Positions 4,073 to 63,803 of a DNA stretch of 64,000 nucleotides are shown in pieces. The position numbers and the translations under genes were made by a program. This stretch comes from Amoebidium appalachense. Taxonomy: Eukaryota; Protista; Ichthyosporea. The notes under the pieces were generated by a model. It had not been told where the DNA came from, made no database searches, and saw nothing but the letters and a program-made list of their open reading frames with translations. The stretch covers positions 12,952,328 to 13,016,327 of the forward strand of contig CAVNZM010000002.1 of assembly GCA_963693365.1 (NCBI GenBank), read 5' to 3'. Within the stretch, counting starts at the first letter, position 1; every line of letters begins with the position of its first letter.

Positions 4073-4128
4073 TGTGCACGTGTGTGTCCGTGTGCGTGCT
4101 TGCACACTCCTCCAGTTTGCCGTAGGTC

Positions 4129-4402
4129 CAGCGTACTTGTCCATGCACTTGTTTCTACTGGCACACTTAAAACTCTAACGCACGCCATGCACACGTTTGT
4201 TTTTAGCCCTCCCTCCCTCACTCTCGTCTTCGGGATTCTCTGTGAATAGATCATGCAGGCAAGTGCAGCGTACTTGTCCATGCACTTGTTTCTACTGGCA
4301 CACTTAAAACTCTAACGCACGCCATGCACACGTTTGTTTTCAGCCCTCCCTCCCTCACTCTCGTCTTCGGGATTCTCTGTGAATAGATCATGCAGGCAAG
4401 TG
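4129..4402. repeat. 137-bp tandem duplication (2 copies)
   Basis: 4129-4265 and 4266-4402 are identical except one substitution (tttag/ttcag). Confidence 0.95.
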
Positions 4403-5705
4403 CACGACCCGACATCGATTTCGAATGGAATGCGATCGGATCTTATGGTTCAACACTCCCACCCAGAAAACCTTTTACCTCTTCTTCGTGTAATTACGCA
4501 ACTTTTTACTGTCAAGCTACATACGCTCTCACAAACAGCAGAGGGAAACAAGTGTGCGCGGCTGTGTGCACACCTAATATTGTTGTTGTAATATTGGAGC
4601 AGTGGATGTTTGCCTCATGATAGTCTGCGCCTATTTAACGTCACATAATTTAGTTTAGGCCCCTTTCGACTGCCGAAATATTACTTGAGAGGTATAATCG
4701 TAGACTAAATCCAACTCCCAGATGTCGTAATCCTTCCGGCCCAGTAGATCTGGTCCAAGCCTCCAAGACCTTCGAACCGTGCATTATATATAATTATGCA
4801 ACCTGGAAAAGAAAACATGGGCAAGAAAAGGCACGTGATTACGGAGCTTCCAAAATGTTGGCTTTGGGACTCTTGACTTGAGCTGCCTCGTAAAGTAGCT
4901 GCAGTGATGGTGTCATGTTAAGTTGGCGTCCTACCATCGTGCACGTGCCTGTTTAGAATTCAATTCCACACGTATGCCCCTCCCCCTCCCCCCCTCCCCC
5001 CCCTAATGGGCGTTGTATATATGTATGAAACCTTCATGCACACCACGCGTACGAACACACATGTAAGCATACAATCGGTTTCATATGCACAGCCACATAT
5101 GTACACTAGTGTCAGCCTGTACCACAAAAACTGTGCACTTGTATGCACTAGATTATCAAAGCTGCTAATCGTTCTTAGCAGATGTTCTTTTATTCGTGAG
5201 GGGCAGCTTCAAGTACAACTGCCGGACATCATTTGAGGCTGAGTGAGCCCCCTCGGAGAGGAGCGGCTGAATTCTCCAGTCGTATATAAGAATTTTTTCG
5301 CAGAAAGGTGATCAATAAGTATCAAGTGCAGTGTTCGTAAACCCGGATTATGATACCAACCTAAAGCAAACGCTATCTTTCGTGGGCGCATACATACGTG
5401 GTTGCCACAGCAACGACTTCAGCCTTCTTCGGAATACAAGAGTGATTCGCAAGAACAACAGGCCCAGCGGAGCAATCAACAACATGTTGTTTTAAAGGTC
5501 TTATCCTGCGTTAACTAATTAATACTAATATGCAAATGCCGACAGTTTTACTAATAACAAATTCCCTTGGAGCTTTCGAATTCTAGTTTGCAAGTGTACA
5601 GGAACAAAATTCGAAAGTCAAGAATCGTCTCACAGTCTTTTCTTTCCACTTCTATTTGCGGGCGCGTGCGTGTATGTGTGTAAGTGTGTTGTCTGTGTTT
5701 GGGTG

Positions 5706-6764
5706 TTACAGACATTCATGCTGCCTATGACTCTCACACATGGTAGCCCCACACACACACTTAACACCCCAAGACCCTAAGTGCACCTGGCAGCAATGAC
5801 AAAATATCCCCACAGCCGGCGCCTTTTTCACGCCACTCTTTCCCGTCTTTGTGCCAAAATCACACTCCGAACTGTCGTTTTTCGTCTTGTCCCTCTTTTT
5901 GCGCAATTTTGCTTGGAGCTCCTTCAACTTTAACTTCGTCTTTGTGTTCTCTTCAGCCCGCTGCCTCCACCAAGCTCTCCCACGCTCTTCGTTCTGCTTC
6001 AATCTGTCGCGTGTGCGTGAACTAGATGATGATTTTGACGGATACAACGGTCTCTCCTCCGCATGCCGCGCGTTAACAACGAGATATTTCAACCTTTCCT
6101 GTCCCGTTACTACCGACAGATGCTTTTCCCACTCGCCGGGAGCAGCAGTCAAAAACAGTTGTATCTGTTGCTCTGTGAGTTCCGCCTGTTCCTGTATATT
6201 CAAGCTAATCAGACCCGAACGCGCAACAGGAACAAGCGTCAATGTCGAACCGTCTCTAACACCGCCTTGTGAAAGTGTGTTGATATCCATTAACCGGGTC
6301 TCACCCAAGAGCAGGTGACAGTCCCAATGTGGCCCCAGATTCATCTGCAAGCCGATTAGTAGCTTGACGTCCCTAACCGTTAGGTTTGGGTTGACTTCGA
6401 GTGCCCTTGCCTCTCCCAGCGCGTTCTTGACGCTTATTTTCAAAGCCGTGGTGTCTTCATCCGTGTCCGAAAACTCGCATAGATCTAGAGTACGTGGGGG
6501 GTCAGTCCTTGTAAGGGTTAAAGAATCCTCCCACCGTTGCTTTTTCGTGCATTCTAAATCTTGTTGTAAGAGACTGATGCTTAAAGATTCCCGGACAACG
6601 GTGGGTCCCGCGCTTAAAGGTTCGCAGGAAGAGGGTTGTGGGCTTGGGCTGCGGCTCAAGGCTTCGCGGCTTTGCGTACGTTGGGCATTGTGCTCCATGT
6701 GATTTGGGTGACTTCCGTTAATATTTAGATTTTCCGACATGGTGAAACCATAAACCATATTCAT
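5706..6764 (-). CDS. Intronless ubiquitin-like domain protein with midnolin-like segments and a C-terminal AN1-type zinc finger (midnolin/ZFAND4-like)
   Basis: 352-aa ORF. UBL domain (LKISVKNALG...TVRDVKLLI...TLSQGGVRDGSTLTLVP), then LTEQQIQLFL, a basic helix EENTKTKLKLKELQAKLRKKR, and a terminal CxxC-x9-CxC-x4-CxxH-x2-HxC. Confidence 0.8.
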   Translation of the reverse strand: MNMVYGFTMSENLNINGSHPNHMEHNAQRTQSREALSRSPSPQPSSCEPLSAGPTVVRESLSISLLQQDLECTKKQRWEDSLTLTRTDPPRTLDLCEFSDTDEDTTALKISVKNALGEARALEVNPNLTVRDVKLLIGLQMNLGPHWDCHLLLGETRLMDINTLSQGGVRDGSTLTLVPVARSGLISLNIQEQAELTEQQIQLFLTAAPGEWEKHLSVVTGQERLKYLVVNARHAEERPLYPSKSSSSSRTRDRLKQNEERGRAWWRQRAEENTKTKLKLKELQAKLRKKRDKTKNDSSECDFGTKTGKSGVKKAPAVGIFCHCCQVHLGSWGVKCVCGATMCESHRQHECL

Positions 6765-7203
6765 GTAATGAGCAGAACTAAAAGTGCCACCTCTTCGGCT
6801 TATTTAAGGCATAATGCAACAGCGAAAGGTGCACACGTGAATTCGAAAAGCAGAGAGAAAAGTGTGTATGTAGCTGTTGGTATAAAAGCCTTTGAGGCAC
6901 ACTCTTTGAAGTCAGACTCGTCGGATGTGTAGCGTTTTGTATACAGAAAACCTTGTATGGGAAGAATGAGAAATAGCTTTATGAGTGCCTTACTTGTTAC
7001 TATGACGAGCTTGAGTGTTTGCTTTGTCTAATAATATTAGACTCAACACACCATGGGACCAAGGAGCAAACTACCAGCCTGTGGCACCAGCTCAAAAACT
7101 TACTGATGCGAAAAAACGTATGGGTACAAGCACAAGCGAACTGTGCACAATGAGGTTCTCTAGAAGGTAAGGGGTGAATAAATGAGAAAAACTAAAACAC
7201 AGG

Positions 7204-7246
7204 TACATTATTTGCGAGTAAACAGCGTAAACCCCTACATTATTTG
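7204..7246 (+). mobile_element. 21-bp extreme 5'-truncated non-LTR insertion with 11-bp TSD
   Basis: tacattatttg (7204-7214) + cgagtaaacagcgtaaacccc (7215-7235) + tacattatttg (7236-7246). The insert is identical to 57407-57427, downstream of the non-LTR RT. Confidence 0.8.
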
Positions 7247-8091
7247 TTTTGCTTTGTTTGTTCGGTTGTCTTATCATCTCAAGCTTGAAGCGCGCAACTC
7301 TCGAAGCTCCAGCGAAACGAAGGTACTTTACGTAAGTTGATTTTTAGGGGGCTCCAAGAACCAAAATAACCATCTAAATAGGGGTGCTTTTGCAATAATT
7401 CCTGTTTGGTTAAAATGATATCCGATAAATCTAGAGAAGAAATTCGAAGAAAATCCATTCGATTGGACAGCTCAAATACCGAACTTTTGTAGGCTTGAGA
7501 AAAGGATGATAAATACCCAATTGTTGGGGCCCGTGTGCTGCGTCAACGGAGTGCGGACCGCACGTGCACGCACCTGCAGGTAACCATCACTTGCATGCAT
7601 ACGTGAGGAGTCACGCGGCTGAGAAGAAAGACCATAACACACATGTGGCACGCCAGCGCATTGATTCGATTACGTTGATAATAAAGTTAACATTTCCTCT
7701 TTATGCCTATGGGTTCGCGAACGGATCGATCAACGTTGCAATTGGCGCTGGTTATGCAGCCGCATCGATGATGCCGGAGGCCGGGGCACTGGAAGAGTAA
7801 AGCCAAGGAGGGGAAGGGGTATGTGTACGGTATTATAACAATACGAATGCCGTAGATTGTTATGGCATAGTCCAGGAGCTGAAGCAACCCAAATATATAA
7901 CTCATTCCAGCACAATGGGAGAATTTTTCTGCGACATGGCACAGCACTTTGGGCCGTTTGGCAAAAAGCCATGCATCTGCCGCACGGTGCGTTCCTATCC
8001 AATCAACCGCACGTTGCAAATTTTGAGACATTCGCACGCAACTCATCCGTTCATCGTCGCCTGCAGGCTGCGGCATGTCCTCAAATTTTAG

Positions 8092-8367
8092 TGTACGTTT
8101 CATATGCGCAGCAGATGAAAGATGTTTCACGGATCACTTCGGGCGCAGGCAGCCGGGCGGCCCATGACGTCACGGGCCGCGGCGCCAGGCGCAGCCGCAG
8201 CGGCGGCTGACATCGGTCTGGCGCAGCGCCTGACGTCAGGCGCCACCAGCGCCGGTATTTCCGGCGCAGCACACTGCAGATGCAGGCCACCTTCGTTTTC
8301 GCCGTGTGCTGCACGTACGGTTTTTGTTAGCACGATTGCGTTTTCGGTGGCTAGCACACGGCGGCTC
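8092..8367 (+). repeat. Split direct repeat A1 (276 bp)
   Basis: Appears identical to 16833-17108 (offset 8741) and ends 4 nt before the gag ATG. Confidence 0.95.
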
Positions 8368-8371
8368 AAGT

Positions 8372-8444
8372 ATGGAAGTAGACCCAACAGACAATGGCCC
8401 TGCAGCACAGGCAGGGCAGGCGGCGCGCCCTCCTGTGCAGGACG

Positions 8445-8507
<63 letters not shown>

Positions 8508-9574
8508 TTGCCCTGACCCCTGAGCTGGCAGCGACCATTCGCATGTTTGCTTCTGAGGTGGCCAACGCGACCCGTCAGGCCCTGCAGGCCAGCCCGGCCC
8601 CCCCTTCCCAGCAAGATCTTCTCCTGCGCGCCTTCCCCCACCTCGTCAACCTTGGCGGGGGCGGAACCGGTAGGAACCCCCCTGTCACGGGGCCCCCTGC
8701 CGCTGCGGCGGGGGCCGTGGATGCTGTAGAGCAACCCCCCGGCAACGCCAACAAGCGCCCCCGTGAGGAGGACCCTCAGGGCGGCGACATGCACCAGCTG
8801 CCTCCGCCGCCCAATGCCCTGCAACTGGCCGTTTGGGGGGCCAGCCAGCGCAGCCAGTCGAACCCACCCTGCCCCCACCTGTCCCCGGAGGTCCGGGGGG
8901 CTGCCATCTTCGAGCCTATGCAGCATTTCGCTTTACTCGACCTGCTGCCGCCCACGGGCTCTTCTGTCCACACGCAGCGCCAGCCGGTTTCCCTGCCTGG
9001 CCTGCCTGCTGGCACGGTTGTGCTGCAGACGCCTGGCACCCAGCGCCAGCCCGCCCTGTGCCCGGACCTGCAGACCTACCTGCGCTGCATCTTGCAGCTG
9101 CTACGCCTACGCATCAACGCCGACGCCCCCGTCACGGCCCTGCTGGCCCACGCCGAGTTTGTGGCCACTGAGTTGGCACCCGAGTACCAGTGGGCTGCCA
9201 TCATGCGCTGGGAGGATGCACACCGCCGGTCGTGCGCTGCCTCTGGCCGCCCACTCGACGCACCCGACGCTGTGCAGCTGGCCGTCACGGTGTCCCTGTC
9301 TGGTGCCCGCCTGCACCAGGCACCCACCGCTCCCCGCACACCCCGGCAGCCTGCCTCTGGGGGGGCCACAGCCAGCCCTCGCGCCAGCCCGGCCCCTGCT
9401 GCGGATGAGATATGCCGGGGCTTCAACACGGCCAAGGGCTGCACCAGGAAGGGACCCAACCCTTGCCGCTACAAGCACGCCTGCCTGAAGTGCGGCTCAG
9501 CGGCGCACGGCGCACACGCCTGCCCTCCCAACCCAGCCAACGGGGCGGGGGAAGGGGGGGCCAACCCGGCTTAG
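8372..9574 (+). CDS. Gag-like ORF1 of the YR retrotransposon
   Basis: ATG at 8372 (MEVDP...), a CAG-encoded polyQ (19 Q), and a C-terminal tandem zinc finger CRGFNTAKGCTRKGPNPCRYKHACLKCGSAAHGAHAC (CCCH + CCHC) of the type seen in Ngaro ORF1. Confidence 0.85.
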
Positions 9575-11294
9575 GGGGCCCAGCCCCCTTTCGGGCAGGG
9601 GCTGACGTCCGCGCTGGGCCTGCCCTCTCCGTTGCCCTGCGGGGCCCATGGTCGCCCCCCCCAGCGGCACCACCACAGACCGTATCCGTCCCCAACTTCC
9701 GCCGTTTGTTTGAGTTGTTTCCGCACCCCGACAGTGCGTTTCAGCAGGCTCTGCTCCGCGACTTAGAGCTGGGCTTCTCGGTCGGTTACTTCGGCGAGCG
9801 GGTCACCCGGGTGGGCCGAAACCACCCGTCCGCGCTGGCGGCCCGTGAGCAGCTTGCAGCCGACATTGCGAAGGAAGTGGCATGCGGCCACATCCTGGGC
9901 CCCTTCACCCGCGACGAGATGGTGGCCCTTTATCCTTATTTTGTATCCTCGCCCCTCGGGGCAGTTCCCAAAAAGGGCGGCACGGGCGTCCGCCGCATCC
10001 ACGACCTTTCCTTCCCGCGTGGCTCCAGTATCAACGATGGGGTCGATTACCCGGATCAGCTGGAGTACATCACCATCCGCACGGTGATGCAAACAGTAGC
10101 TCGGCTCGGCCAGGGCTGCTTCCTCGGGGCATACGACGTGAAGGGTGCCTTTCGTCACGGCCCGGTGCACCCAGACGACCAGCCACTGCTGTCGTTCCAG
10201 CTGCTAGGCGCGTTCTATGTGGAGACCCGCCTACCGTTTGGCTTGCGGTCCAGCCCAGCGTTCTGGGAACGCATAGCTCAGGCCCTGCAGCACTTCGCCC
10301 ACGCCCTCAACGCCACAGAGACACAGCATTTTGTGGACGACTTCTTTTTCGGCGGCCGTACGCTGCAAGAGTGCGCCTTCAACATGCTGGTGTTTCGGTG
10401 GGTGTGCTCGAAGGTGGGTGTTACGCTTGCCGACGACAAAGTGCAGCTGCCCTCTCACACGCTCATCTACTCTGGGCTCGAGTGGGACACTCTGCGCATG
10501 GAGGCCCGCTTACCTGCCATCAAGCTGACCGAGCTCCGGGCCCTGCTAGCCGATTGGCGGGGTCGCACCAAGGCCACTGTTCGAGACCTACGGTCCCTGT
10601 GCGGCAAGCTCATGTGGTGTGCTCAGGTTGTGGCGCTGGGGCGTGCCCGTGCCTTTCTTCAACGCTTGCTTCATCTGCTGGCGGAGGCTGAGAGGGCCGG
10701 CCTAGGGCCCCACCACCACATCCGTGTCTGCGCCGACGCACGAGCCGACGTTGTGCTGTGGTCGGAGTTCCTCCCCGAGTGGAACGGCATACGTGTGCTT
10801 ACCCCCCCCGTGCATCACATGTTCACCACAGATGCGGCCGGCAGCATAGGATGCGGTGGTAGTACTGGGGTCAAGCGTGGTTTCACCTAGCATGGACGGA
10901 CCATTGGCGCACGGTCATTGCTGGCGGAGATGTGTGGGCTTCCGTGCTGTTTGAGCTGGCTGGCATTGCCGTGGCCCTGGCCTGTTGGGGTCCCAGCTGT
11001 CGCAACAGCCACATACGCGTGCTCACCGATAACGACGGTGCAGTATCTACGATCGCGTCCCGTCACTCCCCCGTCCCTGCCATTGCCCGGGTGCTGCGTC
11101 TCATCACGCTGATGGAAATGCGCTACACGGTGCTGGTCTCGGCCAAGCACATCCCTGGCGTGGAAAACTCGATTGCGGATGCCATCTCGCGAGCACAGTG
11201 GGCCACTTTCGACCGGCTGCACCCGTGGCACGCACCAGTCCCAACACCCGTGCCTGAGTGGCTAGCGGGGTGGTTTGCTGCCCCTCTCTCGTGA
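9412..11294 (+). pseudogene. Reverse transcriptase / RNase H ORF (overlaps gag), frameshifted in RNase H
   Basis: RT motifs RRIHDLS, YDVKGAF, RLPFGLRSSP and HFVDD. RNase H begins FTTDAAGSIGCGG, shifts frame at ~10861 and continues YWGQAWF...FELAGIAVAL..WG...LTDN...HIPGVENSIADAISR to a stop at 11294. Confidence 0.9.
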
Positions 11295-11586
11295 TGGGGC
11301 TGGGCCGAGCCCCCTCCCCTGTTCCTTTGCCTTCGTATTGGGCTTGGCGTGTGGGCTGTGGGGGGCACCGACACCCCCCCTTCCCCCCTTCCCACTTTGT
11401 ATATCGCACGAGTCATGTTCTGCAGTGGCGGCCGGGGCCGGCCCCCCCCCCACTACACGAATTCGCTCGGATTCCCTCACTCACCCGGTGGAGTGTTTGG
11501 GACAATACATTACGGTCTTACGGTGTACACACGGTGTGCCTCTTTGTTCTGTGCTGGCCCGCAGTGCCAACTGCTTGTGGCGTGTC

Positions 11587-11618
<32 letters not shown>

Positions 11619-11855
11619 TCCTTCCCTCCCCCCCAACCCCCCCAACCCCACCCTGCCACCCCCTCCACCCGCCCCTTCGATCGTGCATGCTTAACCTCGG
11701 TGTTACACACACATGCTCATACACACCCACACACTAGCGCACACACACGCACGCCTACACCGCGGCTTGTGCGCGCATGTGACAGCGCATACCCCCCCTC
11801 CCCTTCCCCCGCCCTCCCTGCCAGCGCTGCATGCATCCTCTGCCCTTTAGCTACG

Positions 11856-11891
<36 letters not shown>

Positions 11892-12247
11892 TTGTCTGCC
11901 TGCCTGTGCACCCGCTTGCCTGCCGCCCACCCCGCTCGTTGCCTTTACCCCCCCCCCCCCCCCTGGGACTCTTAGACTAGGCATGATGCTCACACAGCTC
12001 TGTCCCTGCAGGTGGCTTCAATCTCCCCTTTGGTGGCGACCATGGTAGGCTTGCCCAGTGGTTCACCCCCGAGGTTTTGGCCCGTGTCCCGGAGGTGGCC
12101 CGCACCATCACTCGGCTGTCAGTGGGCGACAGCGCGGAGTCCTCCTACTCGTCCTACCAGCGCCAGTTTATCGACTTCATCTACGCAATGGACTGCCGCA
12201 ATCCTGATGGTGGTTACCTGCCAGCCTGCCCAGCCCAAGTGCAGCTG

Positions 12248-12727
12248 TGTAAACAGTTGGACTAGTTAGGATAAGGCAGAGTACAACTGAATCAAAATAA
12301 AGACAGAGAACGGGTAGAAAGGCACACGCGGCCAGGTTGCTTTTACTATGGGCCGACTCAGTCTGTCTCAGACTTCACTGATGTGATCCCCGTACTGGGA
12401 CGGCTTTCTTATATAGCCCCCAGGTTTCGGATCAAGGCCCAGGATTGGTTCATCCGCGGCCAGCGCGGGTGGCAACATGCCATTCGTGATTCTGGTGCGG
12501 TCCGAGCCAGTCAGACCTTTGTCCTATTTATGCAAACCTCTTATTGGTTCACTTCGTTTATGTGGTATGCAGCTGAAGAACCATATATGGTTCAATTCTT
12601 AGGTCAGAGTGAGTCCTATTGGTGCGGACATAATATTTATGTGATATTCATGACAAAGCACGAATCGTGTGCTAGTAGATCACATTCTTTAGTAAACATG
12701 TACAGTTCATGTGTACAGTTGTTTACA
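12248..12727 (-). repeat. 3' LTR (480 bp)
   Basis: Appears identical to 15321-15800. Preceded on the minus strand by the polypurine tract GACAAGGGGGGGAG (12728-12741). Confidence 0.95.
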
Positions 12728-15305
12728 CTCCCCCCCTTGTCGGGAGCCTGGTGGTGTCGTTAGACAAGCAAACCACCAGGCTGAGAGGCGATAAACAACC
12801 TTCAGCGAGAATTCTTGTGTGTGCCGAGCTGCTGGACAGAACAGAGCAAGGACGGTGGAATAGAGTTGTGCACGTCTATGAGCACTTCTTCATTTGCCAA
12901 AACGTAAATTCATGCAGCATTCTTCTGTGATTTCATTTTCGTGGCGAAGATTGTTGCAGAGTGTGCGTGCGAATAATTCGCTAAGCCTTCGTCTCTGTGC
13001 TTGGCTTTTCTGTAGAAGTAGTATTTTCCTTTTTGGGAATTTTTCCTTTTTAGGATACTCCCGCAGATTCGTTTTCAATTGCGAGTAATTTGGTTGTGTG
13101 GATGAATGATCATACCAAACATTCGATAATGAATATAACTCGAGCCTTAGGTCACTTCGTAGCTCAGGTAGTGGTGGATAGCTTCAAGGCTTAGCCACTG
13201 CTCCTTATCCCGGTTCTACCATAAGACTGTAAGGCGAGTCACCATGGCCGGAAAAGCCACTTCTTTCATGAACAAAGAGCACTTCTTTCCTTTCAGCTTT
13301 AACCCTGCATCATCGGAGCTGGGAAAAACAGAATAAAAATGCCCAAGTGTTCTTCGTTGGGCGACATAAAGAAATATATCACCCGTCAGAACCAGTAAAA
13401 GCCCGGTTCATAATTCATAAGAAGAGGGTAGGCAAAGCAAGCCTCCTTCAGAAAACACATGCTTCCATTCGTGAGCAGTTTTCGTATCCCATTTGCCAGC
13501 CATTTTCGTTGAGCAGGGGGATTCCAGGCATAATACATTCTTCTGGAGGCTTGGCCTAAAAAGAAAAGTCGTCGGAGTCGCCCTTTCTTTTGTAAGCAAC
13601 TTCGTGAGCGCGCTTCGTGTTTTCATATTCTCCAGTGCAGGTCTGGATGGTGCCCCATCCTCTGCTTCATTTGTAGGTGGCCCTACTGTAGGTTCTGTTC
13701 GTTGTGTGGAATACCAAAACCATTCGTATTCGTGGAACTGCTTTGTGCTGTGCTTTCTTTCGTGTTGGTGTTCATGAAGTTACCCCGTTCACACACCCTA
13801 CTTCTTACATACATTAGATGTAAGTAGCTGCCTGGTGAGTGTGTGGTTCGTGTTCGTGGCATTCTTCTGTTCCTTCGTGAGAAGAATATTCGTTTTAGCA
13901 GAGGTGCCCAATAAGGCAGCTTGTGGGGTTGTCTCCCGCATGTGCCCATTGGTGGGGTATGCACGTGCTAAATTGTTACAGTGTCATCATATTGCAAGGG
14001 AATAACATGGTCACCTCCGTACCAGGGCCTAGTAGGTACACATGATGGTCCGATGTGTTAGTCAACAACACCTTGCATTCGTATTCGTATTTGTCTTCCA
14101 CGTCACTTTCTTCAGTAGTGAAGGAGGGTATTCGTAATTCGAAACTGAAAGGCTTCCAGCCAAAATACTGACACTGTATGATGGGGTTGTGAGGGAGCGG
14201 TGCCCATACCACATTCTTTTGTTCTGGTGGGGGTGTGCCGGCAGCTAGTGCAAGGCTTGACAGTGTAATTGGTATGTTACACAGTATTGCCACAGACGGG
14301 CATTCACCTTAAAATTCGTACCCAACACCTTCTTTGTTTTTCACATGCATGAACAAAAGTTCTGCATCGACTTTATTACATGCCTTTTGTGCACCAAGAG
14401 TGCAAATTCGTTAGGGCGTGGCACCAGGAAGGGCCGCCATACATGAGTCAGGCATATGTTCGTAATGTGTTTAGGCATGCCAGCATACATTCATGCGCAT
14501 GTTGTGCATCCTGGGCGCTAAACTATGGGGCATGCTGTATTCGAGAACAGCAAGGGATTCGAAGCATGCATGCAACACTACTTTCATAAGATCTTAGGTC
14601 CTACATGCTATAGCAACAGCGACTATCTTCTTCGTTAAGTGCATTTGTGCTGAAAGTGGCCGTGCATCTGGCTTGCGAGTGTGGACGTGCATGCGGTGGC
14701 ATGGACACGATGGCAGTGTGCAATAGGGCAATGCACGCAAGGGCAACGGTTTTATTTTCTTCCTAACATAGAGGGGGCTGTGTGCATTGCAACCCAAGCA
14801 GTGTTGTGCATTTGTCCTTTCATTTTCGTATTTCCAGTTCATTTTGCTTTCGTTTTTCGTTTTTTGTCGTTTGATAACTTCGTTACTTCGTTTTGTTTTC
14901 GTGTTGCATTCATTTCGTATTTCCTCTATGCAATCGTTTGTCGTTAATTCTTTATTTCATTGTGTATTCGTGATGGTTCGTTTTTCGTTGGTTCATTGCT
15001 TCGTTAGCAATTCTTTATTCGTTTGTTCGTGTATTCGTTGTTTCGTTGTGTATTCGTTTTTCTTCACATTTTTGATGTGTCGTAGCAAAAGAAGTTTTAC
15101 ATGCTTTCAATTCTTTCCGTGTAGGTGGGCTGGCCACTTCAAACTTGTAGGTGTATATATTCTAAGCCGGACAAGGAAAGATGTGCCTATCATCGGGGTA
15201 AAAAGGATTGTGATCGGCCATGGGAGATTCTTGAGCTGATTGAAAGATGTGAGATTCTTGAACTGATTGAAAGATGTGAGATTCGAAGGATGCGAGATTC
15301 TTGAA

Positions 15306-15319
15306 CTGCGCGGTCGCCA
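15306..15319 (-). promoter_or_regulatory. Primer binding site, probably tRNA-Arg(UCG)-like
   Basis: Minus-strand TGGCGACCGCGCAG lies 1 nt after the 5' LTR and is complementary to a tRNA 3' end ...CGCGGUCGCCA. The tRNA identity is recalled from eukaryotic tRNA-Arg(UCG) acceptor stems (GACCGCG) and is not verified. Confidence 0.7.
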
Positions 15320-15320
15320 A

Positions 15321-15800
15321 TGTAAACAGTTGGACTAGTTAGGATAAGGCAGAGTACAACTGAATCAAAATAAAGACAGAGAACGGGTAGAAAGGCACAC
15401 GCGGCCAGGTTGCTTTTACTATGGGCCGACTCAGTCTGTCTCAGACTTCACTGATGTGATCCCCGTACTGGGACGGCTTTCTTATATAGCCCCCAGGTTT
15501 CGGATCAAGGCCCAGGATTGGTTCATCCGCGGCCAGCGCGGGTGGCAACATGCCATTCGTGATTCTGGTGCGGTCCGAGCCAGTCAGACCTTTGTCCTAT
15601 TTATGCAAACCTCTTATTGGTTCACTTCGTTTATGTGGTATGCAGCTGAAGAACCATATATGGTTCAATTCTTAGGTCAGAGTGAGTCCTATTGGTGCGG
15701 ACATAATATTTATGTGATATTCATGACAAAGCACGAATCGTGTGCTAGTAGATCACATTCTTTAGTAAACATGTACAGTTCATGTGTACAGTTGTTTACA
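15321..15800 (-). repeat. 5' LTR (480 bp)
   Basis: TG...CA termini with an 8-bp inverted repeat. TATATAA on the minus strand at ~15482-15488. Confidence 0.95.
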
Positions 15801-16700
15801 AGCTGTTCCTTGCCTGGTGCGCCATGCGTGCGGTGCAAGCCCGGACCATGCCCAGCATCGTCTCCGCCGTCAACAGCCTGCACCGCAGCTTGGGCATGGC
15901 ACCACCAGCGGGCTCCGGCCAGCAGAGCCTTCAGTGGTTTATCCGCGGGGCTGGCCGCTTCCTGCTGCTGGAAGGCAGCCACCGGCCCAAATGAGTGCTC
16001 GAGCCCCTCCTCCCAGCCGACCTCCGCGCCCTCCTCCCAGTCATCCAACCGGGCTCTTCATTGGAAGCCCTGCGTCTGTGGGCTGCCCTGCTGCTTGGCA
16101 GCTCGTGCCTCCTGCGCTCGGGCGAGTTCACGTCCAAATCTGCGGCCAAGTTCAACCCCCTCCTTCACGCCAAGCGTCGCGACGTCCAGCTCCTATGGCA
16201 GGATGGCCGCCTGATTGGGGCAACAGTCTTCCTGCCGACATCTAAGACCGACCCCACGGGCAAGGGTGTTACCATCCGGGTGCCCGCCTTCCCGGAGGAG
16301 CCTTCCTTCTGCCCAGCAGCCAATCTAGCCCTCTTCCTGGGGGTCTCGTCAACCAGGGCAGGCATCCACCCAGATGCACCCCTGTTCAGCGTCGACGGCA
16401 GCCCTTACCTCAAGAGCACCTTCATCGCCGGTTTCCGCACAGCTCTACACCATGCGGGCTACGGCCCCGACCGGTACGCCGGCCACAGCCTGCGCATAGG
16501 GGGGGCCACTGCAGCTGAGAGAGCGGGCCTACCTGACGCCACCATCAAAGCCCTTGGCCGCTGGGCATCAGACGCATTCATGGTCTACATCCGGCTGCCC
16601 CACCGCGACGTGCAAGCCTCCATTGCCACCGTCTGGTCACACCAGGGCCTCGCCACGGGACCTTGGGGCGGACCCCCTACATCGCAGTAGGGGGGCCTTG

Positions 16701-17355
16701 TGGTGCGGGGGGGGCTCATGGCATGGACCCCCCCTGGCGGCCCCCGCCTCGGCCGCCCCTTGGGTGCAGGCACGACGGCCTGCACTCCACGGACACGGGG
16801 GGCATGAGGCAAGCACGAGTGAGTGATGTGAATGTACGTTTCATATGCGCAGCAGATGAAAGATGTTTCACGGATCACTTCGGGCGCAGGCAGCCGGGCG
16901 GCCCATGACGTCACGGGCCGCGGCGCCAGGCGCAGCCGCAGCGGCGGCTGACATCGGTCTGGCGCAGCGCCTGACGTCAGGCGCCACCAGCGCCGGTATT
17001 TCCGGCGCAGCACACTGCAGATGCAGGCCACCTTCGTTTTCGCCGTGTGCTGCACGTACGGTTTTTGTTAGCACGATTGCGTTTTCGGTGGCTAGCACAC
17101 GGCGGCTCCCACCCACCCACCTCTCAGTCTGTATACATGACGGTGTACGTATGCGACTGTGACTGGCTCACAGCCCGATTGCAGCGGCAATAAAGCATGT
17201 CGAGGCGGGGCCCAGCCCCGGCTGGTGCGGGGGGGGCTCATGGCATGGACCCCCCCTGGCAGCCCCCGCCTCGGCCAGCCCCTTGGGTGCAGGCACGACG
17301 GCCTGCACTCCACGGACACGGGGGGCATGAGGCAAGCACGAGTGAGTGATGTGAA
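16701..17355 (+). repeat. Split direct repeats B1-A2-(114-bp spacer)-B2
   Basis: B1 (16701-16832) and B2 (17223-17355) differ by one substitution and one 1-nt indel. The B1/A2 junction gtgaa|tgtacg reproduces the expected circle junction. AATAAA lies in the spacer at 17189-17194. Confidence 0.93.
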
Positions 17356-18977: not shown

Positions 18978-19190
18978 TCAGTGCACGTCTCTCTCCTGCA
19001 TCTCCATGACCGAAAAGTTGAGTTCGTCCAGCAAGATATCCAGCTCTGTTTTCAAAAAGTCTACGTAGCTGCCGTTGATGAAGATCATGTCTGGTGTTTC
19101 GGCCATAGTGTCGATAATGAGATCTTTCTTGGTCTCTGCTTTCTTTAAAACGAATTGTTTCATGGCTGGATCACTGTGAGGGAATGAAAT

Positions 19191-19221
<31 letters not shown>

Positions 19222-21010: not shown

Positions 21011-22667
21011 TTTTGTCTCTTGCACCATTAAGGAAACGAAGTATATGCACCACGGGAGTGGTTTACGTTCGAATTCCCACGAGGTTGGTTGTGTAAGATT
21101 GTGTCTTCCGCGATCCAGTACCAGTATGATTACTTTCTGTCTCCGTTCGAACCATAACCTAAATCATTGAAGAAGCTTAATGAAGAGCTGTTGTAAGTGC
21201 GGTGTGTGTGCGGTAAGTTGAAAAAGAAAATGCCGAGAGAGAGAGAGAAAAAAAAAAGGAATTTCTTTGCGGCCTCGGTCGCTCGTCACAGTGACGTAAG
21301 CTGTTCAATCAGATCCGCAATGACGGGGACTGGTGCAAAATGTTTGATCAGATCAGCTGACAGCTGCAGTACTAGATCTGGTGTTACCAAAAACACGTGA
21401 GGCATAAAAAACCGCAAACAGGAATTTCAAGAAACCCAAAAAAATAACATACAAACATTATACTTCAAAATAAACTACAAATATTGGGGCACTCTATACG
21501 TTGTTATTATTTTTCTTATTTTTTGATTAATTCTAGGTATAGGTCTTATGATCAGATTGATCATGTTTTGCTATAGCATTGCGAGCTCAGAAGAAAAAAA
21601 TCTCGCTCGCTCTCCTTTCTGCAGAAATTTTAAACAGGGATTGCAGTCAACTAAAAATATTTGCTAAAAATGTCAGTTTTAATGCACCAACCAGAACCGT
21701 GTATTTTTCTATAAGCCTTGAGTAACCCTATGTACTTGAAACCTAACGGTTGCTTTTGGTTGCCTCTTGCCGCTCCAAGTCACGCAAGCTTCAGATCCCG
21801 TAGATCAGGGTTCGAATCGGATCGCCTCGTGGAACCCTGAGCCGCGGCGCCGCTTCAAATTACCCAAGAGCTATTTTTCTTTTTCTTTTTAGCTACATTC
21901 GTACCTAAGATATTATTATCTTCTTATATGCATCTTTATGTAATTAATGATTAAGCTAAAGTACTGTATAATAAAACCTTTCGCTAGCAAGCTTTTGAGG
22001 GTTGACAATAATAATAGCTATACTTGTTTTCCGGTATAAAGTAGAAAAAGTAGAAACAATTAGGAAATCAACTATATCCCAGTCCCAAATGATTTATTCA
22101 ACCGAGCGTTTGTTGGCCAATCGCGTATCACACTTTGTGCTTTAATGCGCTTTTTAATTTTATAATCTGGAGATTTTTGCCGAAGTCTAATTAGGCGGCT
22201 GGCGTCCGTTGCGGGACCCTATAATAATAGATGCCCACTGTGCGTGGAGCTTCGTTCCAATCAACTTTCGGCCTGTTCAAAATGAATCATGACAGTGGCT
22301 AAGTGTGGCTTCCGTCTAAGCTTTATATACTCGTAGTCTAAAGTATGTATCCGCGCTTTTTTCTCCATCTGAAACTTATCTATTAAGTCACACAGTTGAG
22401 TGCATTTGTGTTTGCGCCATCAATAATGCCACATGCATCTTCGCCTCCCATGATCAAGTAAACTGGCCACTTCAAACATAGTCTAGCGAATGGAGAAAGC
22501 AATACCGTCGGAACTTAGAACCTTTATATGGCGTATTAGCGGGAGCATACCGTGCACCGTGGTACAGAAGTTAGGTTCGGGCGAAGAGGGGTAGCAAGGG
22601 CTGCGACAAACCTTTGGGGGCACAGTTTTGAGTATAATCTCAGGCACATCCTGCCTGCACCGTAAAC

Positions 22668-37129
<14,462 letters not shown>

Positions 37130-37462
37130 GTAGGTGGAAGGGGAAAAGGGTACAAAGATTGGCAAAACACTAAAAAAAGGCTAAATGTAGTCGACATTTC
37201 CATACGGGTTTCCTTGAAAGAAGACCATTGCATTTTTTTATTTTTGTTGTTTTGAAAAAGAGGGAGATATACCAGATCGTGCCATTTTTAGGCAAAGCCA
37301 ATCAGTCAGTGTGGCTTTTGTTCGACATATAATAGAGTCATATTGACGTCTGGTCGAGAAATGTCGACTTGGGATTTTTTTGTTTTCCATCTTTGGTTTC
37401 TGCCCCCCCCCCCCCCCTCCCCCCCCTCCCCCCCTCCCCCCCCCCCCCCCCCCTTTTTTTTT

Positions 37463-43995: not shown

Positions 43996-44036
<41 letters not shown>

Positions 44037-44205
44037 TAAGTGGAGCATGGCGCACCATAGAAGAGTCTTCCAGCAGCCTCCAGAGACTGCAGCCTGTCCC
44101 AGCCCCTATTCTTCATGTCTTGAGAGGGCCACCTGGCTATGTGGTTGCGCAGGAGAACAAGTGGCCGTACTCCCTGGGCTTGAAGCTGATTGGCTAGATC
44201 CACAA

Positions 44206-44270
<65 letters not shown>

Positions 44271-44482
44271 GTGTGTGGTTTGTGCACGCGCGTGCTCGTG
44301 TACGTGTGCACGTGTGTGCATAGGCCTGAACGGGGAAGGAGAGGAGAAGAGAGGGAGAATGAAAACTGTAACGCAAAGCAGACGCCAATAGGCAACAGGA
44401 AAATTGAACTCACGGCAAGCAGGCATGGAGGAACTGGTGGGGGGGAAAGAGGGGGAGGAAGGAGGCGGCGGGGGGAAGGGGG

Positions 44483-44516
<34 letters not shown>

Positions 44517-44724
44517 GAAGGGGGAAGGGGGGAGGGGGGGGGAGGGGGATACGTACGGCATCACAATTAAAAGACCTCTGGGGCCCACGCTTTGTGGCCT
44601 TCTGGGGGGCGCACCAACAGCCCACATTCATTCCATCCACTATCAGATCAAAGGGGCCATAGTCCGCAAGATAGCGCTCAAACACCGCTAGTTCTTTCTG
44701 ATGGGCTGTTTTTTTTTTTTTTTT

Positions 44725-44793
<69 letters not shown>

Positions 44794-44981
44794 TAGGTTA
44801 GAAGAATGTTGCGGTGAGAGATTAGGGATTAAAAGGGGTGTGATGAAGAGGGAAAGGAGAGAAATTGGCGGAGAGGAGGGGGCGGGGAACGGGGGTCGGA
44901 GGGGGGGATGGGAAAGGGAGTTTGAACACTATAAAGAGTACGAAATAGGACGCGGAAGGGGAAAAGAGAGGGGGGGAAAGA

Positions 44982-45021
<40 letters not shown>

Positions 45022-45832
45022 AAAAAAACGTGTGTAACCATGCAATATGTATGTGAGAATGTGTGCACGATTTGAATCCATGCATTCAGTTCTTGCATAC
45101 ATGGAGGGGCACACAAACACAAACACTTGTTTGTGCTGATTGCCTTTTTATTTTATTTTTTATTTTAGGTCGTTTGCACAAACTACACTAACAAGAACAT
45201 AACACTGGCCGCCCATTGACGATTGACCAGCCCCTTTGTTACCCTAAATATATGTATCGGGGGGGCAGAATACGATTGGGTAAATCGTCTTCTTGATGTC
45301 TCCGGTACGTAAGATTTCAAGTTCTACACATCAAACGAGCATCCATCAATAAATATATAAACACTCACCATGCAATTAACGTGCAACATGCATCAAGATC
45401 ATGCAACATAATGAAATTTCGGTCGATCAATCACGTACCTATCCCGCGGCGGTGCACCAACTCTTTGATCTCATTGGCTAACCGGGTAAGCCTATCAGAT
45501 GGCAGCAGAAGTTCTTCTAGCTTCTGCCCACAGCACTTGCACTGCCCACTGTGTGCAGCTGTCAGTATTTGTTCTTGAAAATTGTTAAGGTTTTCTTTGG
45601 GCCATATGTGTTGGGGTGAGTGTTTCAGGCCACTTCATTCGCGCTAAAAGTTGCCCATTCGGCCAAAAACAATTCTGAAGTTTCATTTCAATCGTGTTAA
45701 AAGTTCCCCGTTCGATCACGTAGCTTCTCTAAACACTAGATTTACCGCTCGTCCTTGCTGAATAGGTTAACATTCATTCATTGCAGACATGTGTGATTGA
45801 CGCTAAGCCTCCAAAAAAAAGAAAAGAGGGAG

Positions 45833-45877
<45 letters not shown>

Positions 45878-46541
45878 GAAGAATGTGTCACAGAAAACGA
45901 AGTACATATTCATCACGAACAACACATTGCAGAGTACAAACCACAAAAAAAGGTTACGCAAATCGAGCAGAGCCCATTCTCAGAAAATAAGGGGGGGGGG
46001 GGGGGGGGGGGGGGATTGGTTACCTTTCGCTAATTGTTGACTGTTCTACCTTCCACTCCACTCCCATCGGCTTACTGCAAACAGCCATTTGATTAAACCA
46101 CATGCTCGCATTTTAATCGATTTACTTAAAATCATGCTCTATGACAAAACCTTAAATGGCATTGGTCAACCCCGCCAATTCCCTTAAAATCTCTTCAGCA
46201 CTTCCACGAGAATACAGATACACAAAAGAACACTGCATGCAATAACACGCATCCGCACACGTGCATTACTGCAAAGGTGCGTGTACGTGCACGTTACAGG
46301 GACATGGGTACAAAGATATGCCCAATGCAACAGGCACACATGCAGTTGCACATGCTTCTTTAGAACGAGCCTATGTCGTATCCGCACCCCCTACATCCGT
46401 TTCTCCCACTCTTCCACTCTCTCATCTCCCTCTCTCTCTTTTCCGCTCATTCTCTCATCCCTCTCCCTCTCCCTCTTTCTCTCTCACACACTCTCTTTCT
46501 CTCCTCCCCCCCTCCCCCCTCCCTCCCTCCCTCCCTCCCTC

Positions 46542-46572
<31 letters not shown>

Positions 46573-46591
46573 GCCTCTCCCTCCCTCTCTC

Positions 46592-46636
<45 letters not shown>

Positions 46637-46703
46637 ATGTGTGTGTGTGTGTGTGCGCGCGCTCGAGCGCGCGCCTGTTAGTACCTGCGGAAGTTCGTCC
46701 CTG

Positions 46704-46743
<40 letters not shown>

Positions 46744-48178
46744 CCTGTGCAAGTGGGAGTGGATGGGCATTTGCGTTTCAGAATGCAGACTGACAAGCAG
46801 AAGGGGGGAACTGGGTGCCGCGGGAGGGTGGGTGGGTGGGGGGGGGGGGGGGGGGGGGGGGGCCAATGACCGTGAGAGCGAGGGCGGAGGGGAAGCAGGC
46901 AGAGTGAGAAATGGGGATAATTGTACAAGGGGAGAGGGCCAAAGAGCATTAAGGGAGGCGGGGAGCGGGGGGGGGGGGGGGGGGGGGGAAGGGGAAAAGG
47001 GGGGATATAGTGCACGTACGTGCGTGTGAACCAATCAGTGATGCTCTGCATGTCTTTGGGGGCCACCATCACCCCCCTCTGTCTCATTTCCCAGAGCACG
47101 GCAAATCCCTTGGCCCGGTTAGAGGGCTCCTGGGCTCGTGTGCACGCTTCAAACATGGGCGCAAATGTGGCGCTATCTGGGAGAACCTGGGTGGAAGGAG
47201 GGAATTAAGAATTAAAAGAAAAGTTAAAATATGGAATGAGGGGAATAAAAGGTAAGATTAAGTCAATAAATATGAATGGGAGATGGGAGGAAAAAAATGA
47301 TGTGATATCGGGCTATGTGATGATATGGTGGGAGGGAAAGGAAACTAAAATAAAGCTAAAATAATATAAGGGGAGGAACAAAAGGTGACGTAACGTTAAT
47401 ATATATGAATAGGGAATAATAACGATGTGATATCTCGGGCTATGTGATGATACGGGGTGAGGGATGGGGGGGGGTTTGAATGCGTCAAAAAGTACGAAGT
47501 ACACAAGAACAAACGGATAACACGATGCAGAATGCAAGCCATACATAAAGAGTATGCATAATAAGCAGAGCTCATCCTCAGGGGGGGCCCACGTCATCCA
47601 CAGTACCCGAGTTTCGACCTATTCACCTCGTTAACGAAACACACGTCAGATACTGTTTCACTTGAACATGGGTAGGTCACCCGTCTTGATCAGAGACGAG
47701 CAGGGTTGCTTGTGCAGGCAAGGGCAGTGGGAAAGGCCGGGGGATTAAGTTGCAGCAGTAAGCAGAAGCAAGAAAAATATAGATAGGAACTCAGGAGACG
47801 GGGCTTCTAGGAAGCTCCCCCGTCGCTACCTAAGTCGATACTTCCCTGGCTAACATACTACACCAGCTGAAAAGAATTAAGTCCCGAAGGCTGCAGAATT
47901 CGCAATCAGAGGGGAAGATATGAGATTTGACCCATGCCGCAGGGTAGTAACACGCTTACTAGGGCGGAACTTTATCGTCTTCGAACGGAAAGCTATGCCC
48001 CCGGATGTCAGCCGGAAATATGGTATCACCCATTGCTTTGGGCTTGAAAAAAAGCCAAATCGATAGTCCGAGTTATGTTACGCCGGCGGGTAACATGCCG
48101 CATGGGTTCCAAGGGAGCTGTCGCCAACAGAGCGGTGTGTGCATGCGTGCGCGTAACGCAATGTGTGAAGTGTGGGGA

Positions 48179-55001: not shown

Positions 55002-55223
55002 CTACCGGGTCCTACCCATCCCTGGCCCCTAGACTCTTTTTCTTTTTAAGATTCTCTCTCGACTCCCTCAGAGTCTAGCTGTCTCTCTTGCTCTCCCTCT
55101 TTCACTCTGCCCCTCATCGACTGCCCAACATTTTATAATGAGATAAATTGTGTTAAAACCTTCACGTATACAGTGGCAACTCAAAAAGCTTTGGATTATT
55201 AAGGTGATATTTGAAGCTACTTT

Positions 55224-57427
55224 ATGTCGCCTGGGAAAAGATTTGCCAATAAAGGACACGCGTGCACAGCACTGAAAATAATGCAATATAGCTCTAGTAA
55301 GTCTTATAGCTCTAGTAAGTCTTATAGCTCTAGTAAGTCTTGTGGACCGGATGGACTTCCTGCTGGGTTTTTTAAAATCCTTGTTCCCTCCTACCCACAA
55401 AAGGAAAGTGATCGTGCTATTAAACCTGATCTTACTATTATGTTAAACTCTCTCTTTTCTTGGTGGTGTGTTAAATGTGGACATGTCCCGTCATCTTGGT
55501 TAGATACCTTAGTGATCCCCATAGTTAAGAAGGACTCTGAGGGCCCCATATCATCTTTTCGCCCCATCACACTAACCCAGGTTGTTCGTAGATTCTTTGA
55601 AGCTTGCTTACTTCACATACACCCATGCCAATCTGCTTTTCGTAAGAACAATTCATGTTATGTTAAAATAATGGCACTGCACGATTCTATGCAAGTTGGT
55701 GCACGATATGTTGGCTTTATTGATTGGAAAACTGCTTACGATTCTGTCTCCCCTGGTCTCCTATGGGAAAAGCTTGCTGCACGGGGTGTACCACACTGCA
55801 TTGGTGTTCTGTTAGAAGCACTTTTGTCTCAAACCTATGGTAGAGCTGTGGTTAATGGGCATCTTTCATATGGTTTTGCTCGTACTAGAGGTCTCTTGCA
55901 GGGTTCATTGCTTAGCCCCTTTTTGTTTAACCTATTTATAGATGATTTGGCTGTCAAGATTTATGCCGAAAATGATGACCCTATTATTAACTTTCCGCCT
56001 ACACTTCTCTATGCTGATGATCTGTCCCTCCTTGCCCGTACCCCTAGACGCCTGCAAAGATTGTTCGATGTAGTGTCAAGAGTGGTGCAAGGCAAACCTT
56101 ATGATCCTTAACATAGACAAATGTGGTGTTCTTGTACCTGATATAGCTAACAATTTACACACATTTACATTATCATCTAAAACTGTACCTATAGTTCCAG
56201 CATACAAATATCTTGGTGTTCCGGTTATTTCTGTTGGTGTTATGTTTTCCCATATGGTCGGAAAGAGGGTAGAGTTGGTAAGCGGTTAGCTTTCTTCTCG
56301 GCTAGTATTTTTAAAGACCCACCCCTCCATCCTTCTATTAGACTTACATTTATTCGCACTTTTGTCTTCTCGGCATGTGAATATGGTTTACCCCTTCTCG
56401 CCGCTTGGATCAAGAAAGAGAGAACTAGAGCGCTTAAACCCTTGGCAAATTTCCTTGAAGCAGAAGTTGCCTCCTTTCTATCTAACAACTGTTGTAAACC
56501 TGGGCCTGTAACGCTCTCGATATATGGTCTGGTCCCAATAGCAGCTGTAGAGTACATATCCCATCTCGCGCTGAAATTCAATAAGCACATAAGCCGATTA
56601 AAGAAGTATTTGCCCTCCCACCCTCTCTCCTCTATCCGACCTGTCCCCTCCTCACCTCTCCCCTCTTTCCTTCCCTCTCTCTCTCCGTCTCCCCCGGGCA
56701 CAAATACAAATAAACCCCGCGAAAGTGTGCGTGTGACTTTGGACTGCCACTTACTTGTTAAGAGGCTTAAACATGTACACAATCACAAGATAATCACGCA
56801 ATATAACAAATGGAAAAAGATACCACACGACACTAGACCCGATGAAAGCAGACACCTTGAAAAACTAAGCCTTATGTCTCGTTTTATACATAATGACCGC
56901 CTTAACCATATTGCCAAATATGGCACTCGCAAATGTAAAACACCTAAATACATATTACCTTCCTGTAGAACTGGTCTTTCTCTAGCTGTTTACGGTATTA
57001 TTGATCAATTACCACGCTTTTACTGTACACGTGCTATACAGTGGAGATCTAATAAGTATAAGGTGGCATCGTTTGCATGCCCAAACAACACACACACACA
57101 CCAGTTTAAACGGTCATGTATCGCCAAATGTAGTTTGATAGACCACATAATACGTGCACACACACGTCACATTCACAACAGACACCCAGAAAGATAGCCT
57201 ACCTGTAAATTACAACATCCTTGATTTTATACTAAACGCGCGTACTTAATTAATTGATTTTTTCTCAGTCTTTATGGTGTCTCGTAGAGAAAGTAAACCC
57301 TGATATATAGTCATCACCTGACATCTATGTACGTGATCATGATATACCGCTGAGGGGATATTCCGAGCAAAACCCCCCCATACCTGAGACTGGTCTCTCT
57401 TTGCCTCGAGTAAACAGCGTAAACCCC
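55224..57427 (+). mobile_element. Decayed non-LTR (LINE-type) retrotransposon: RT domain plus C-terminal region and 3' UTR
   Basis: Motifs KSCGPDGLP, IPIVKK, FRPITL, QSAFR, FIDWKTAYDSV, GLLQGSLLSPFLFN and LYADD. Frameshifted continuation LNIDKC...YKYLGV, then a Cys/His-rich tail. No endonuclease is recognisable. An 18-bp tandem repeat x3 lies at ~55286-55340. Confidence 0.9.

Positions 57428-58135: not shown

Positions 58136-63803
<5,668 letters not shown>

Follow-up and report, generated by a model that had tools for sequence, protein, structure and literature searches.

The midnolin (MIDN; Stuxnet in Drosophila) pathway has been described as metazoan, and its discoverers asked whether other proteins share the mechanism (bioRxiv 10.1101/2025.02.22.639686, accessible text). 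Phe280 of the GxFxG zipper lies in Catch2, and the two Catch halves of midnolin bind in trans (PMC10617673, accessible sections). In the accessible parts of the published accounts, the midnolin Catch is semi-symmetrical and its zipper grips the best substrates of midnolin. P100 and A104 of the ubiquitin-like domain (UBL) are buried in Rpn11 and are required for function, and P100 is required for stimulation. Similarly, mutations of K391, L395, and L399 impair midnolin. The midnolin contacts stimulate peptidase activity, while the isolated helix binds without stimulating.

The function of ZFAND4 is given as 'N/A' in a 2025 review, as far as its accessible text goes (PMC11799193). For ZFAND5, the CTR and the AN1 finger are described as binding and activating the proteasome, and the CTR acts as a degron (bioRxiv 10.64898/2026.06.05.730379, accessible text). 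In the accessible parts of the literature searched, which included PMC12088389, PMC5035049, and PMC13031973 and excluded subscription papers and supplementary orthologue figures, neither a link between ZFAND4 and midnolin nor a placement of midnolin outside animals was found. The likely ZFAND4-midnolin kinship, which is exposed by the mosaic protein described here, is apparently unpublished.

Herein, a gene within a window of 64,000 nucleotides (the window is the whole stretch of DNA that was analysed) is compared with these systems. We lean, if only slightly, toward reading its product as a compact but diverged protein of the ZFAND4 type, with an ancestry in common with midnolin, that docks on the proteasome at two points and acts as a modulator rather than a substrate catcher. 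The features of the gene are as follows.

5706..6764, minus strand: intron-free open reading frame (ORF), 352 amino acids from the first ATG
6444..6764, minus strand: N-terminal extension, residues 1-107, low-complexity, with an acidic end as in crustacean ZFAND4
6210..6443, minus strand: ubiquitin-like domain, residues 108-185, identified by Pfam, fold, and ZFAND4 UBL profile
6210..6233, minus strand: UBL tail, residues 178-185, aligned to the Rpn11-contact residues of midnolin, without di-glycine
6027..6209, minus strand: helix and beta-hairpin module, residues 186-246, in the place of the conserved ZFAND4 module and of midnolin Catch1
5880..5969, minus strand: basic helix, residues 266-295, corresponding to the ZFAND4 helix and to midnolin alphaHelix-C 379-404 (offset +112)
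5712..5801, minus strand: eroded AN1 finger, residues 322-351, with 8 ligands and H-x2-H, without a C-terminal tail
5182..7178, minus strand (as for the ORF): probable transcript, unspliced and about 2 kb long, from contigs guessed to be RNA

The gene was read as a single open frame of 352 codons, and all four motifs quoted in the original prediction are present in its translation. In the contigs of a related organism (run X13), a 1-base insertion is found behind 6761, just past the first ATG. Because this insertion leaves Met3 (6758) and Met9 (6740) as the shared starts, one of these two is likely the working start rather than the first ATG. The frame of the related organism is intact where it is covered, with 6473-6581 uncovered. 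From codon 9 onward, 6 amino-acid-changing and 4 silent differences were counted, and these tiny counts give a dN/dS of about 0.4. One change, Q222P, falls at the predicted hairpin turn. Since this dN/dS is joined by a divergence beyond that of any animal ZFAND4, selection on the gene is possibly relaxed. The N-terminal extension is presumably disordered.

Contigs from two runs of one sample that were guessed to be RNA (X8 and X10) run uninterrupted by any joint over 5182-7178 and 5174-7107 and then end, and the contig of DNA run X2 extends over 4544-8119, past both transcript ends. The contig ends hint weakly that the ORF lies on an unspliced transcript of 2 kb. None of the runs recorded as RNA contains the ORF stretch. 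A word-indexed homologue search with the whole protein gave 0 of 3257 candidates at E <=0.001, and the exact look-up of 4 start variants in the protein collection gave no identical entry. Similarly, 0 of the 227 pattern matches in a metagenome scan with the window protein were confirmed. A viral origin was also considered and found to be unsupported, with viral contigs showing no pattern match and BFVD giving only generic ubiquitin folds.

The window is eukaryotic, and its introns are rich in CA repeats and C/G runs. Two tandem 137-nt copies, 99% alike, are located at 4126-4399. Beyond the gene, the following features were identified.

8085-17355: tyrosine-recombinase retrotransposon, with a gag-like ORF at 8372-9574, a reverse transcriptase at 9412-10890, and a recombinase at 15995-16690
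12248-15620: 3.4-kb insert with identical 300-nt direct repeats, nested in the tyrosine-recombinase retrotransposon
18981-19193, minus strand: exon of the TFIIH subunit Tfb5 (Pfam E 3e-7)
about 22600-37300, plus strand: many-exon DEAH-box RNA helicase, recognised by motifs, the tested exon pieces having no convincing Pfam match
about 44000-47200, minus strand: exons of protein-only RNase P (PRORP; Pfam E 2e-4 and 2e-3)
55215-57197, plus strand: broken non-LTR-type reverse transcriptase (Pfam RVT_1 E 5e-23)
about 59700-63500, minus strand: many-exon RasGEF gene with RasGEF_N and RasGEF domains

The retrotransposon carries split direct repeats (8085-8367/16826-17108 and 16728-16832/17251-17355), a layout that we take to be of the Ngaro/PAT type. 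The X13 contig departs from the window at 8091, suggesting that the retrotransposon site near this position is empty in the related organism. The nested insert, in which no long ORF of a known family was noted, is possibly a non-autonomous LTR element. The helicase is presumably DHX33-like, judging by its motifs. The CpG observed/expected ratio of the ORF is 0.94, compared with about 0.3-0.6 in most intron-rich gene bodies of the window; the transposons of the window show 0.7-1.0. This contrast of the gene bodies with the transposons and the ORF may reflect gene-body methylation. PRORP is described in animals and their unicellular relatives (PMC4558845, accessible text). Its presence would suit a holozoan host, but equally other protists or an animal. 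The style of the genome may be like that of ichthyosporeans.

The original prediction had described the protein as a midnolin-like protein fused to an AN1 finger. The UBL, the module, the helix, and the AN1 finger in this order and with this spacing are the ordinary plan of animal ZFAND4, so the supposed fusion is the usual ZFAND4 layout without its long linker. When 1.84 billion representatives were scanned in full with HMMER, 205 matches were obtained, and the best 150 of the 205 were ubiquitin repeats by their pattern, with one exception. This match aligned in a single stretch over the UBL, the module, and the helix, and was a shrimp ZFAND4 (BLAST 32%, 193 columns). Follow-up searches gave 14 and 24 ZFAND4 proteins. 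A metagenome scan with the ZFAND4 module confirmed at least 26 of 596 loci; the readable ones were typical animal ZFAND4s, and none was window-like. ZFAND4s were found in crustaceans, birds, and fish and, via cluster members, in ctenophores, an octocoral, a snail, and a copepod. They share a UBL, a helix, an R-x-G-D hairpin, a Pro-Leu pair, and an E-N..T..K...L helix, followed by a long linker and the finger.

The distance from the UBL end to the helix is 88 residues in the window protein versus 87-109 in the 22 animal ZFAND4s, and is 279 in human midnolin (G105 to E384). The region after the UBL was aligned to ZFAND4 by hhalign with a probability of 94 and an E of 1.3e-7. The identity of the window protein to animal ZFAND4s is about 25-30%, and it is more diverged than any animal ZFAND4. 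In the tree, which contained no midnolin or non-animal rows, the window protein is placed on a very long branch, and 13 of the 21 inner branches are open. As the ZFAND4 hairpin is nearly unchanged from ctenophores to birds, this divergence fits a non-animal or a fast-evolving copy. The helix-hairpin-helix region after the UBL of animal ZFAND4s is strongly conserved with no Pfam family listed, and it merits a family model of its own.

The Pfam ubiquitin family was matched at residues 110-178 with an E of 0.0011, which is short of the curated cut-off. The AlphaFold2 model of the UBL shows block pLDDT values mostly above 90 and resembles ubiquitin with Z 13-14 and an rmsd of 1.2-1.6. Against a profile of animal-only ZFAND4 UBLs, the window UBL scored 22.7 bits, with 0 of 1000 shuffles as high, and 20-30 of its 77 positions are identical to those of full-length ZFAND4 UBLs. 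In the tail, V178, P179, A181, S183, and G184 align in sequence with midnolin V99, P100, V102, A104, and G105; V178, P179, and G184 are identical, and A181 and S183 are small substitutes. The P179 state is found in 0 of 18 ZFAND4s. The window tail carries Pro and Ser-Gly-Leu where all 18 of the ZFAND4s carry Leu/Ile and Gly-Gly-Pro. When residues 149-210 were used as the PDB query, midnolin was the top match (E 0.008), above ubiquitin. The UBL tail identities are 13/20 to midnolin versus 8-12 to ZFAND4s. The UBL end is midnolin-like, as had been proposed; it resembles midnolin more closely than ubiquitin and, by count, more closely than ZFAND4. The midnolin UBL residues T38, T41, and Y43 are lost in the window protein.

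The module that follows was predicted by AlphaFold2 as a helix and a hairpin with a pLDDT of only 40-50. Against the local ZFAND4 HMM it scored -0.7 bits, and 597 of 1000 shuffles were as high; against a glocal profile of 25 animal ZFAND4s the match was weak, with 7/300 and 8/500 shuffles as high (p about 0.02). By eye, residues 196-205 agree with midnolin 124-133 at 6 of 10 positions versus 0-2 of 10 for ZFAND4s, and the phmmer alignment to midnolin extends into this register. Similarly, R, G, D, and F of the ZFAND4 hairpin are in register with midnolin 144-151 by eye. A profile that included the UBL tail reached midnolin 89-147 with an E of 0.15, and a Foldseek match to midnolin 9wbg_f, in which the UBL and Catch are resolved, covered 142 columns, past the UBL, at an rmsd of 15.7.

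Midnolin was not listed in module-only profile searches of the PDB or with a 10-row ZFAND4 post-UBL profile, and it was absent from fold searches with the ZFAND4 module model, which had a mean pLDDT of 60; these searches reached at best a Foldseek E of 0.34 and a Z of 4.5. A search of the ESM Atlas with residues 186-300 gave no usable match. An SdeA match of the module profile (E 0.004) was taken as chance. A homodimer prediction for residues 183-249, run without an alignment and with the fold uncertain, scored 0.00. The Catch domain itself was not returned by any of the profile or fold searches. The GxFxG zipper is absent from the ORF and from the 22 ZFAND4s, no space for Catch2 is present between the hairpin and the helix, and no joint is present in the probable transcript. 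The protein has one Catch-like half only, as the original prediction had stated, with Catch2 and the zipper missing.

The basic helix was predicted at high confidence (ORF residues 251-300, model residues 154-203). It scored 15.1 bits against an animal-only ZFAND4 helix profile, with 0/1000 shuffles as high. When a 30-position helix profile of the window protein and 6 ZFAND4s was used, 6 midnolin constructs were ranked 1-6 of 177,635 PDB sequences. These matches fall at midnolin residues 379-404 with E 0.31-0.59 (per-sequence about 4e-6), which is weak in absolute terms. When the six ZFAND4 helices were used without the window row, midnolin was the second protein (E 1.2-2.4), behind an unrelated WD-repeat protein. 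Outside the UBL, none of the midnolin matches would be significant in a blind search, and charged helices match easily. The weak helix E-values count because the target and the register were named beforehand (per-sequence about 4e-6 to 1e-5). A search of the PDB with residues 189-300 alone did not list midnolin at E <=10.

Midnolin K391, L395, and L399 correspond to K279, L283, and L287 of the window protein, and the ZFAND4 columns at these positions are mostly K/R, L/I, and M (n=18). Three of the four core positions (V392, L395, L398, L399) are hydrophobic in the window protein; L398 is replaced by Lys, as in 7 of the 18 ZFAND4s. By eye, one of the five midnolin arginines at 405, 406, 409, 410, and 413 is matched by a basic residue in register, and the basic run of the window protein, at 288-295, lies about 5 residues ahead of the arginine NLS of midnolin. 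The claim of a midnolin-type C-terminal helix is borne out weakly, at the level of sequence: the helix matches midnolin outside the UBL and in the predicted register. The human midnolin motifs given in the original prediction also agree with the sequence printed in the accessible part of PMC10617673. The midnolin comparisons consist of PDB searches and by-eye counts on this printed sequence.

All 8 Cys/His ligands of the AN1 finger are kept at residues 322-351. A phmmer comparison with solved AN1 fingers gave E 0.001-0.012, Pfam zf-AN1 gave no match, and the match to the ZFAND4 finger profile was weak, with 17/1000 shuffles as high. The window finger has H-x2-H, Met in place of the conserved Phe, and a 1-residue tail, versus H-x5-H, Phe, and 27 residues in animal ZFAND4s (20/20 complete proteins; 22 examined, 2 of them partial). 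The predicted 'compact AN1 finger' is therefore a finger with its 8 ligands, but eroded in spacing, Phe, and tail rather than merely compact. Because these three traits are non-canonical, the protein was filed as a ZFAND4-type variant.

The residues of the window protein form a mosaic. H150, V229, P239-L240, K286, the spacing, and the hairpin end are ZFAND4-type states, and R157, P179, S183, and L185 are midnolin-type states that are absent from the 18 ZFAND4s. The UBL tail and the 196-205 helix are midnolin-like, and the layout, the spacing, and the finger are ZFAND4-like. Such a mosaic could be seen in a gene that predates the duplication, in one on the midnolin stem, or in a ZFAND4 that evolves fast.

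The gene might be a proto-midnolin in a unicellular animal relative, either from before the duplication or from the midnolin stem. Ubiquitin-free degradation would then be performed by a homodimeric half-Catch or with a separate Catch2 partner, and midnolin would be a ZFAND4-like gene plus Catch2 and minus AN1. The four midnolin-type residues, the 6/10 agreement of the first helix, the Foldseek match beyond the UBL, the semi-symmetrical Catch with halves that bind in trans, and the eroding finger agree with this. However, the protein has no GxFxG zipper, no Catch2, and no Catch profile match, it keeps the ZFAND4-type states, and the tree fails to place it; we regard this reading as unlikely. 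An ordinary, fast-evolving ZFAND4 would share only the UBL with midnolin, and the remaining likeness would be chance or convergence, with a tail that drifted from di-glycine and a generic basic helix or NLS. The ZFAND4 order and spacing, the midnolin E-values of 0.3 or worse outside the UBL, and the absence of midnolin from the ZFAND4-module fold searches are consistent with it. Against this, midnolin had been specified in advance as the target, and it came first or second among 177,635 sequences in the register that had been predicted. ZFAND4s also conserve the E-N..T..K...L pattern, which includes the tested contact residues of midnolin, and separate likenesses (tail, first helix, C-helix) occur in the same order. 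We consider this second reading unlikely.

In a third reading, which we judge quite unlikely, an intact ZFAND4 with introns would lie elsewhere in the genome, and the gene would be a copy made by retroposition or duplication that evolves under relaxed selection and has little or no function. The gene is intron-free while the other genes of the window are split by repeat-rich introns, its CpG ratio exceeds that of most gene bodies, it adjoins a retrotransposon, and it combines an eroded finger and a very long branch with a dN/dS of about 0.4. However, the 352-codon frame is open and is intact where covered in the related organism, all 8 zinc ligands have been retained along with the UBL fold and the helix pattern despite an identity of about 25-30% to animal ZFAND4s, and the probable 2-kb transcript covers the ORF. 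A wider and doubtful proposal is that midnolin is a remodelled ZFAND4. Both would derive from a pre-animal factor with a UBL, a half-Catch, a helix, and an AN1 finger, and the gene would be a surviving intermediate in a unicellular animal relative, its product combining an Rpn11 tail of the midnolin type with an AN1 finger in decay. In that case human ZFAND4 would be, unrecognised so far, the second protein to use the Rpn1 M site and Rpn11, and it might bring substrates to the proteasome without ubiquitin through a Catch that is dimeric or completed by a partner.

For the slightly favoured reading, that of a diverged ZFAND4-type modulator, a mechanism can be outlined. The protein has the architecture and spacing of animal ZFAND4, and the family helix matches midnolin alphaHelix-C by profile, weakly. 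By analogy with the midnolin-26S structures, two-point docking is predicted, with the helix on Rpn1 and the UBL tail on Rpn11, and proteasome docking in the manner of midnolin is likely for the window protein and for ZFAND4 itself. The helix would sit on the M site of Rpn1/PSMD2 via L280, L283, and L287. The basic end of the helix may also serve as an NLS. The UBL would bind Rpn11, where its tail without di-glycine would stay uncut, and the proteasome would be shifted to a substrate-engaged state. The module, probably a Catch1 relative, might lie over the ATPase pore. Without Catch2 there is no FG zipper, and strand capture would need a partner; proteasome tuning or activation is likelier for the same reason. 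The tail-less AN1 finger would probably lack ZFAND5-type docking and activation.

This reading leads to a residue-level test, in which a ZFAND4-family helix would bind Rpn1 at the midnolin site and require the Leu equivalent to L395. If the helix binds, ZFAND4 could compete with midnolin, and the compact protein would offer structural studies a minimal version and serve as a marker of the age of the pathway. Without such binding, the gene is no more than an unusual ZFAND4.

Among the known systems, some likenesses were found by feature comparison, and all of these clusters fall below the 0.9 mark. The closest of them, a cluster in the ESM Atlas (63 members, mostly nematode, 360 amino acids), has a UBL, with AN1 in 14% and a feature similarity of 0.89, and it may show a parallel erosion of the finger. 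Short fungal UBL-AN1 clusters (146-231 amino acids, features 0.82-0.85) would be too short for the module and the helix. ZFAND5/6 share the C-terminal AN1 finger; in contrast to them, the window protein has no A20 domain and no CTR tail. The likeness to ZFAND4/ANUBL1 extends over the N-terminal UBL, a weakly matched module that closes with Pro-Leu at equal spacing, the E-N..T..K...L helix, and the C-terminal AN1 finger. The window protein differs from ZFAND4 in its 352 amino acids without the long linker, compared with 364-934 in complete ZFAND4s, and in the conserved R-x-G-D hairpin, which is mostly lost. From midnolin it differs by the missing Catch2 and GxFxG, by Lys at L398, by the presence of the AN1 finger, and by a helix placed 88 rather than 279 residues after the UBL, with the basic cluster about 5 residues earlier. 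The likeness to midnolin lies in the C-terminal half and tail of the UBL, for which midnolin is the best PDB match, in the Catch1-like helix and hairpin seen by eye directly after the UBL, and in the basic helix, which resembles alphaHelix-C and keeps the equivalents of K391, L395, and L399.
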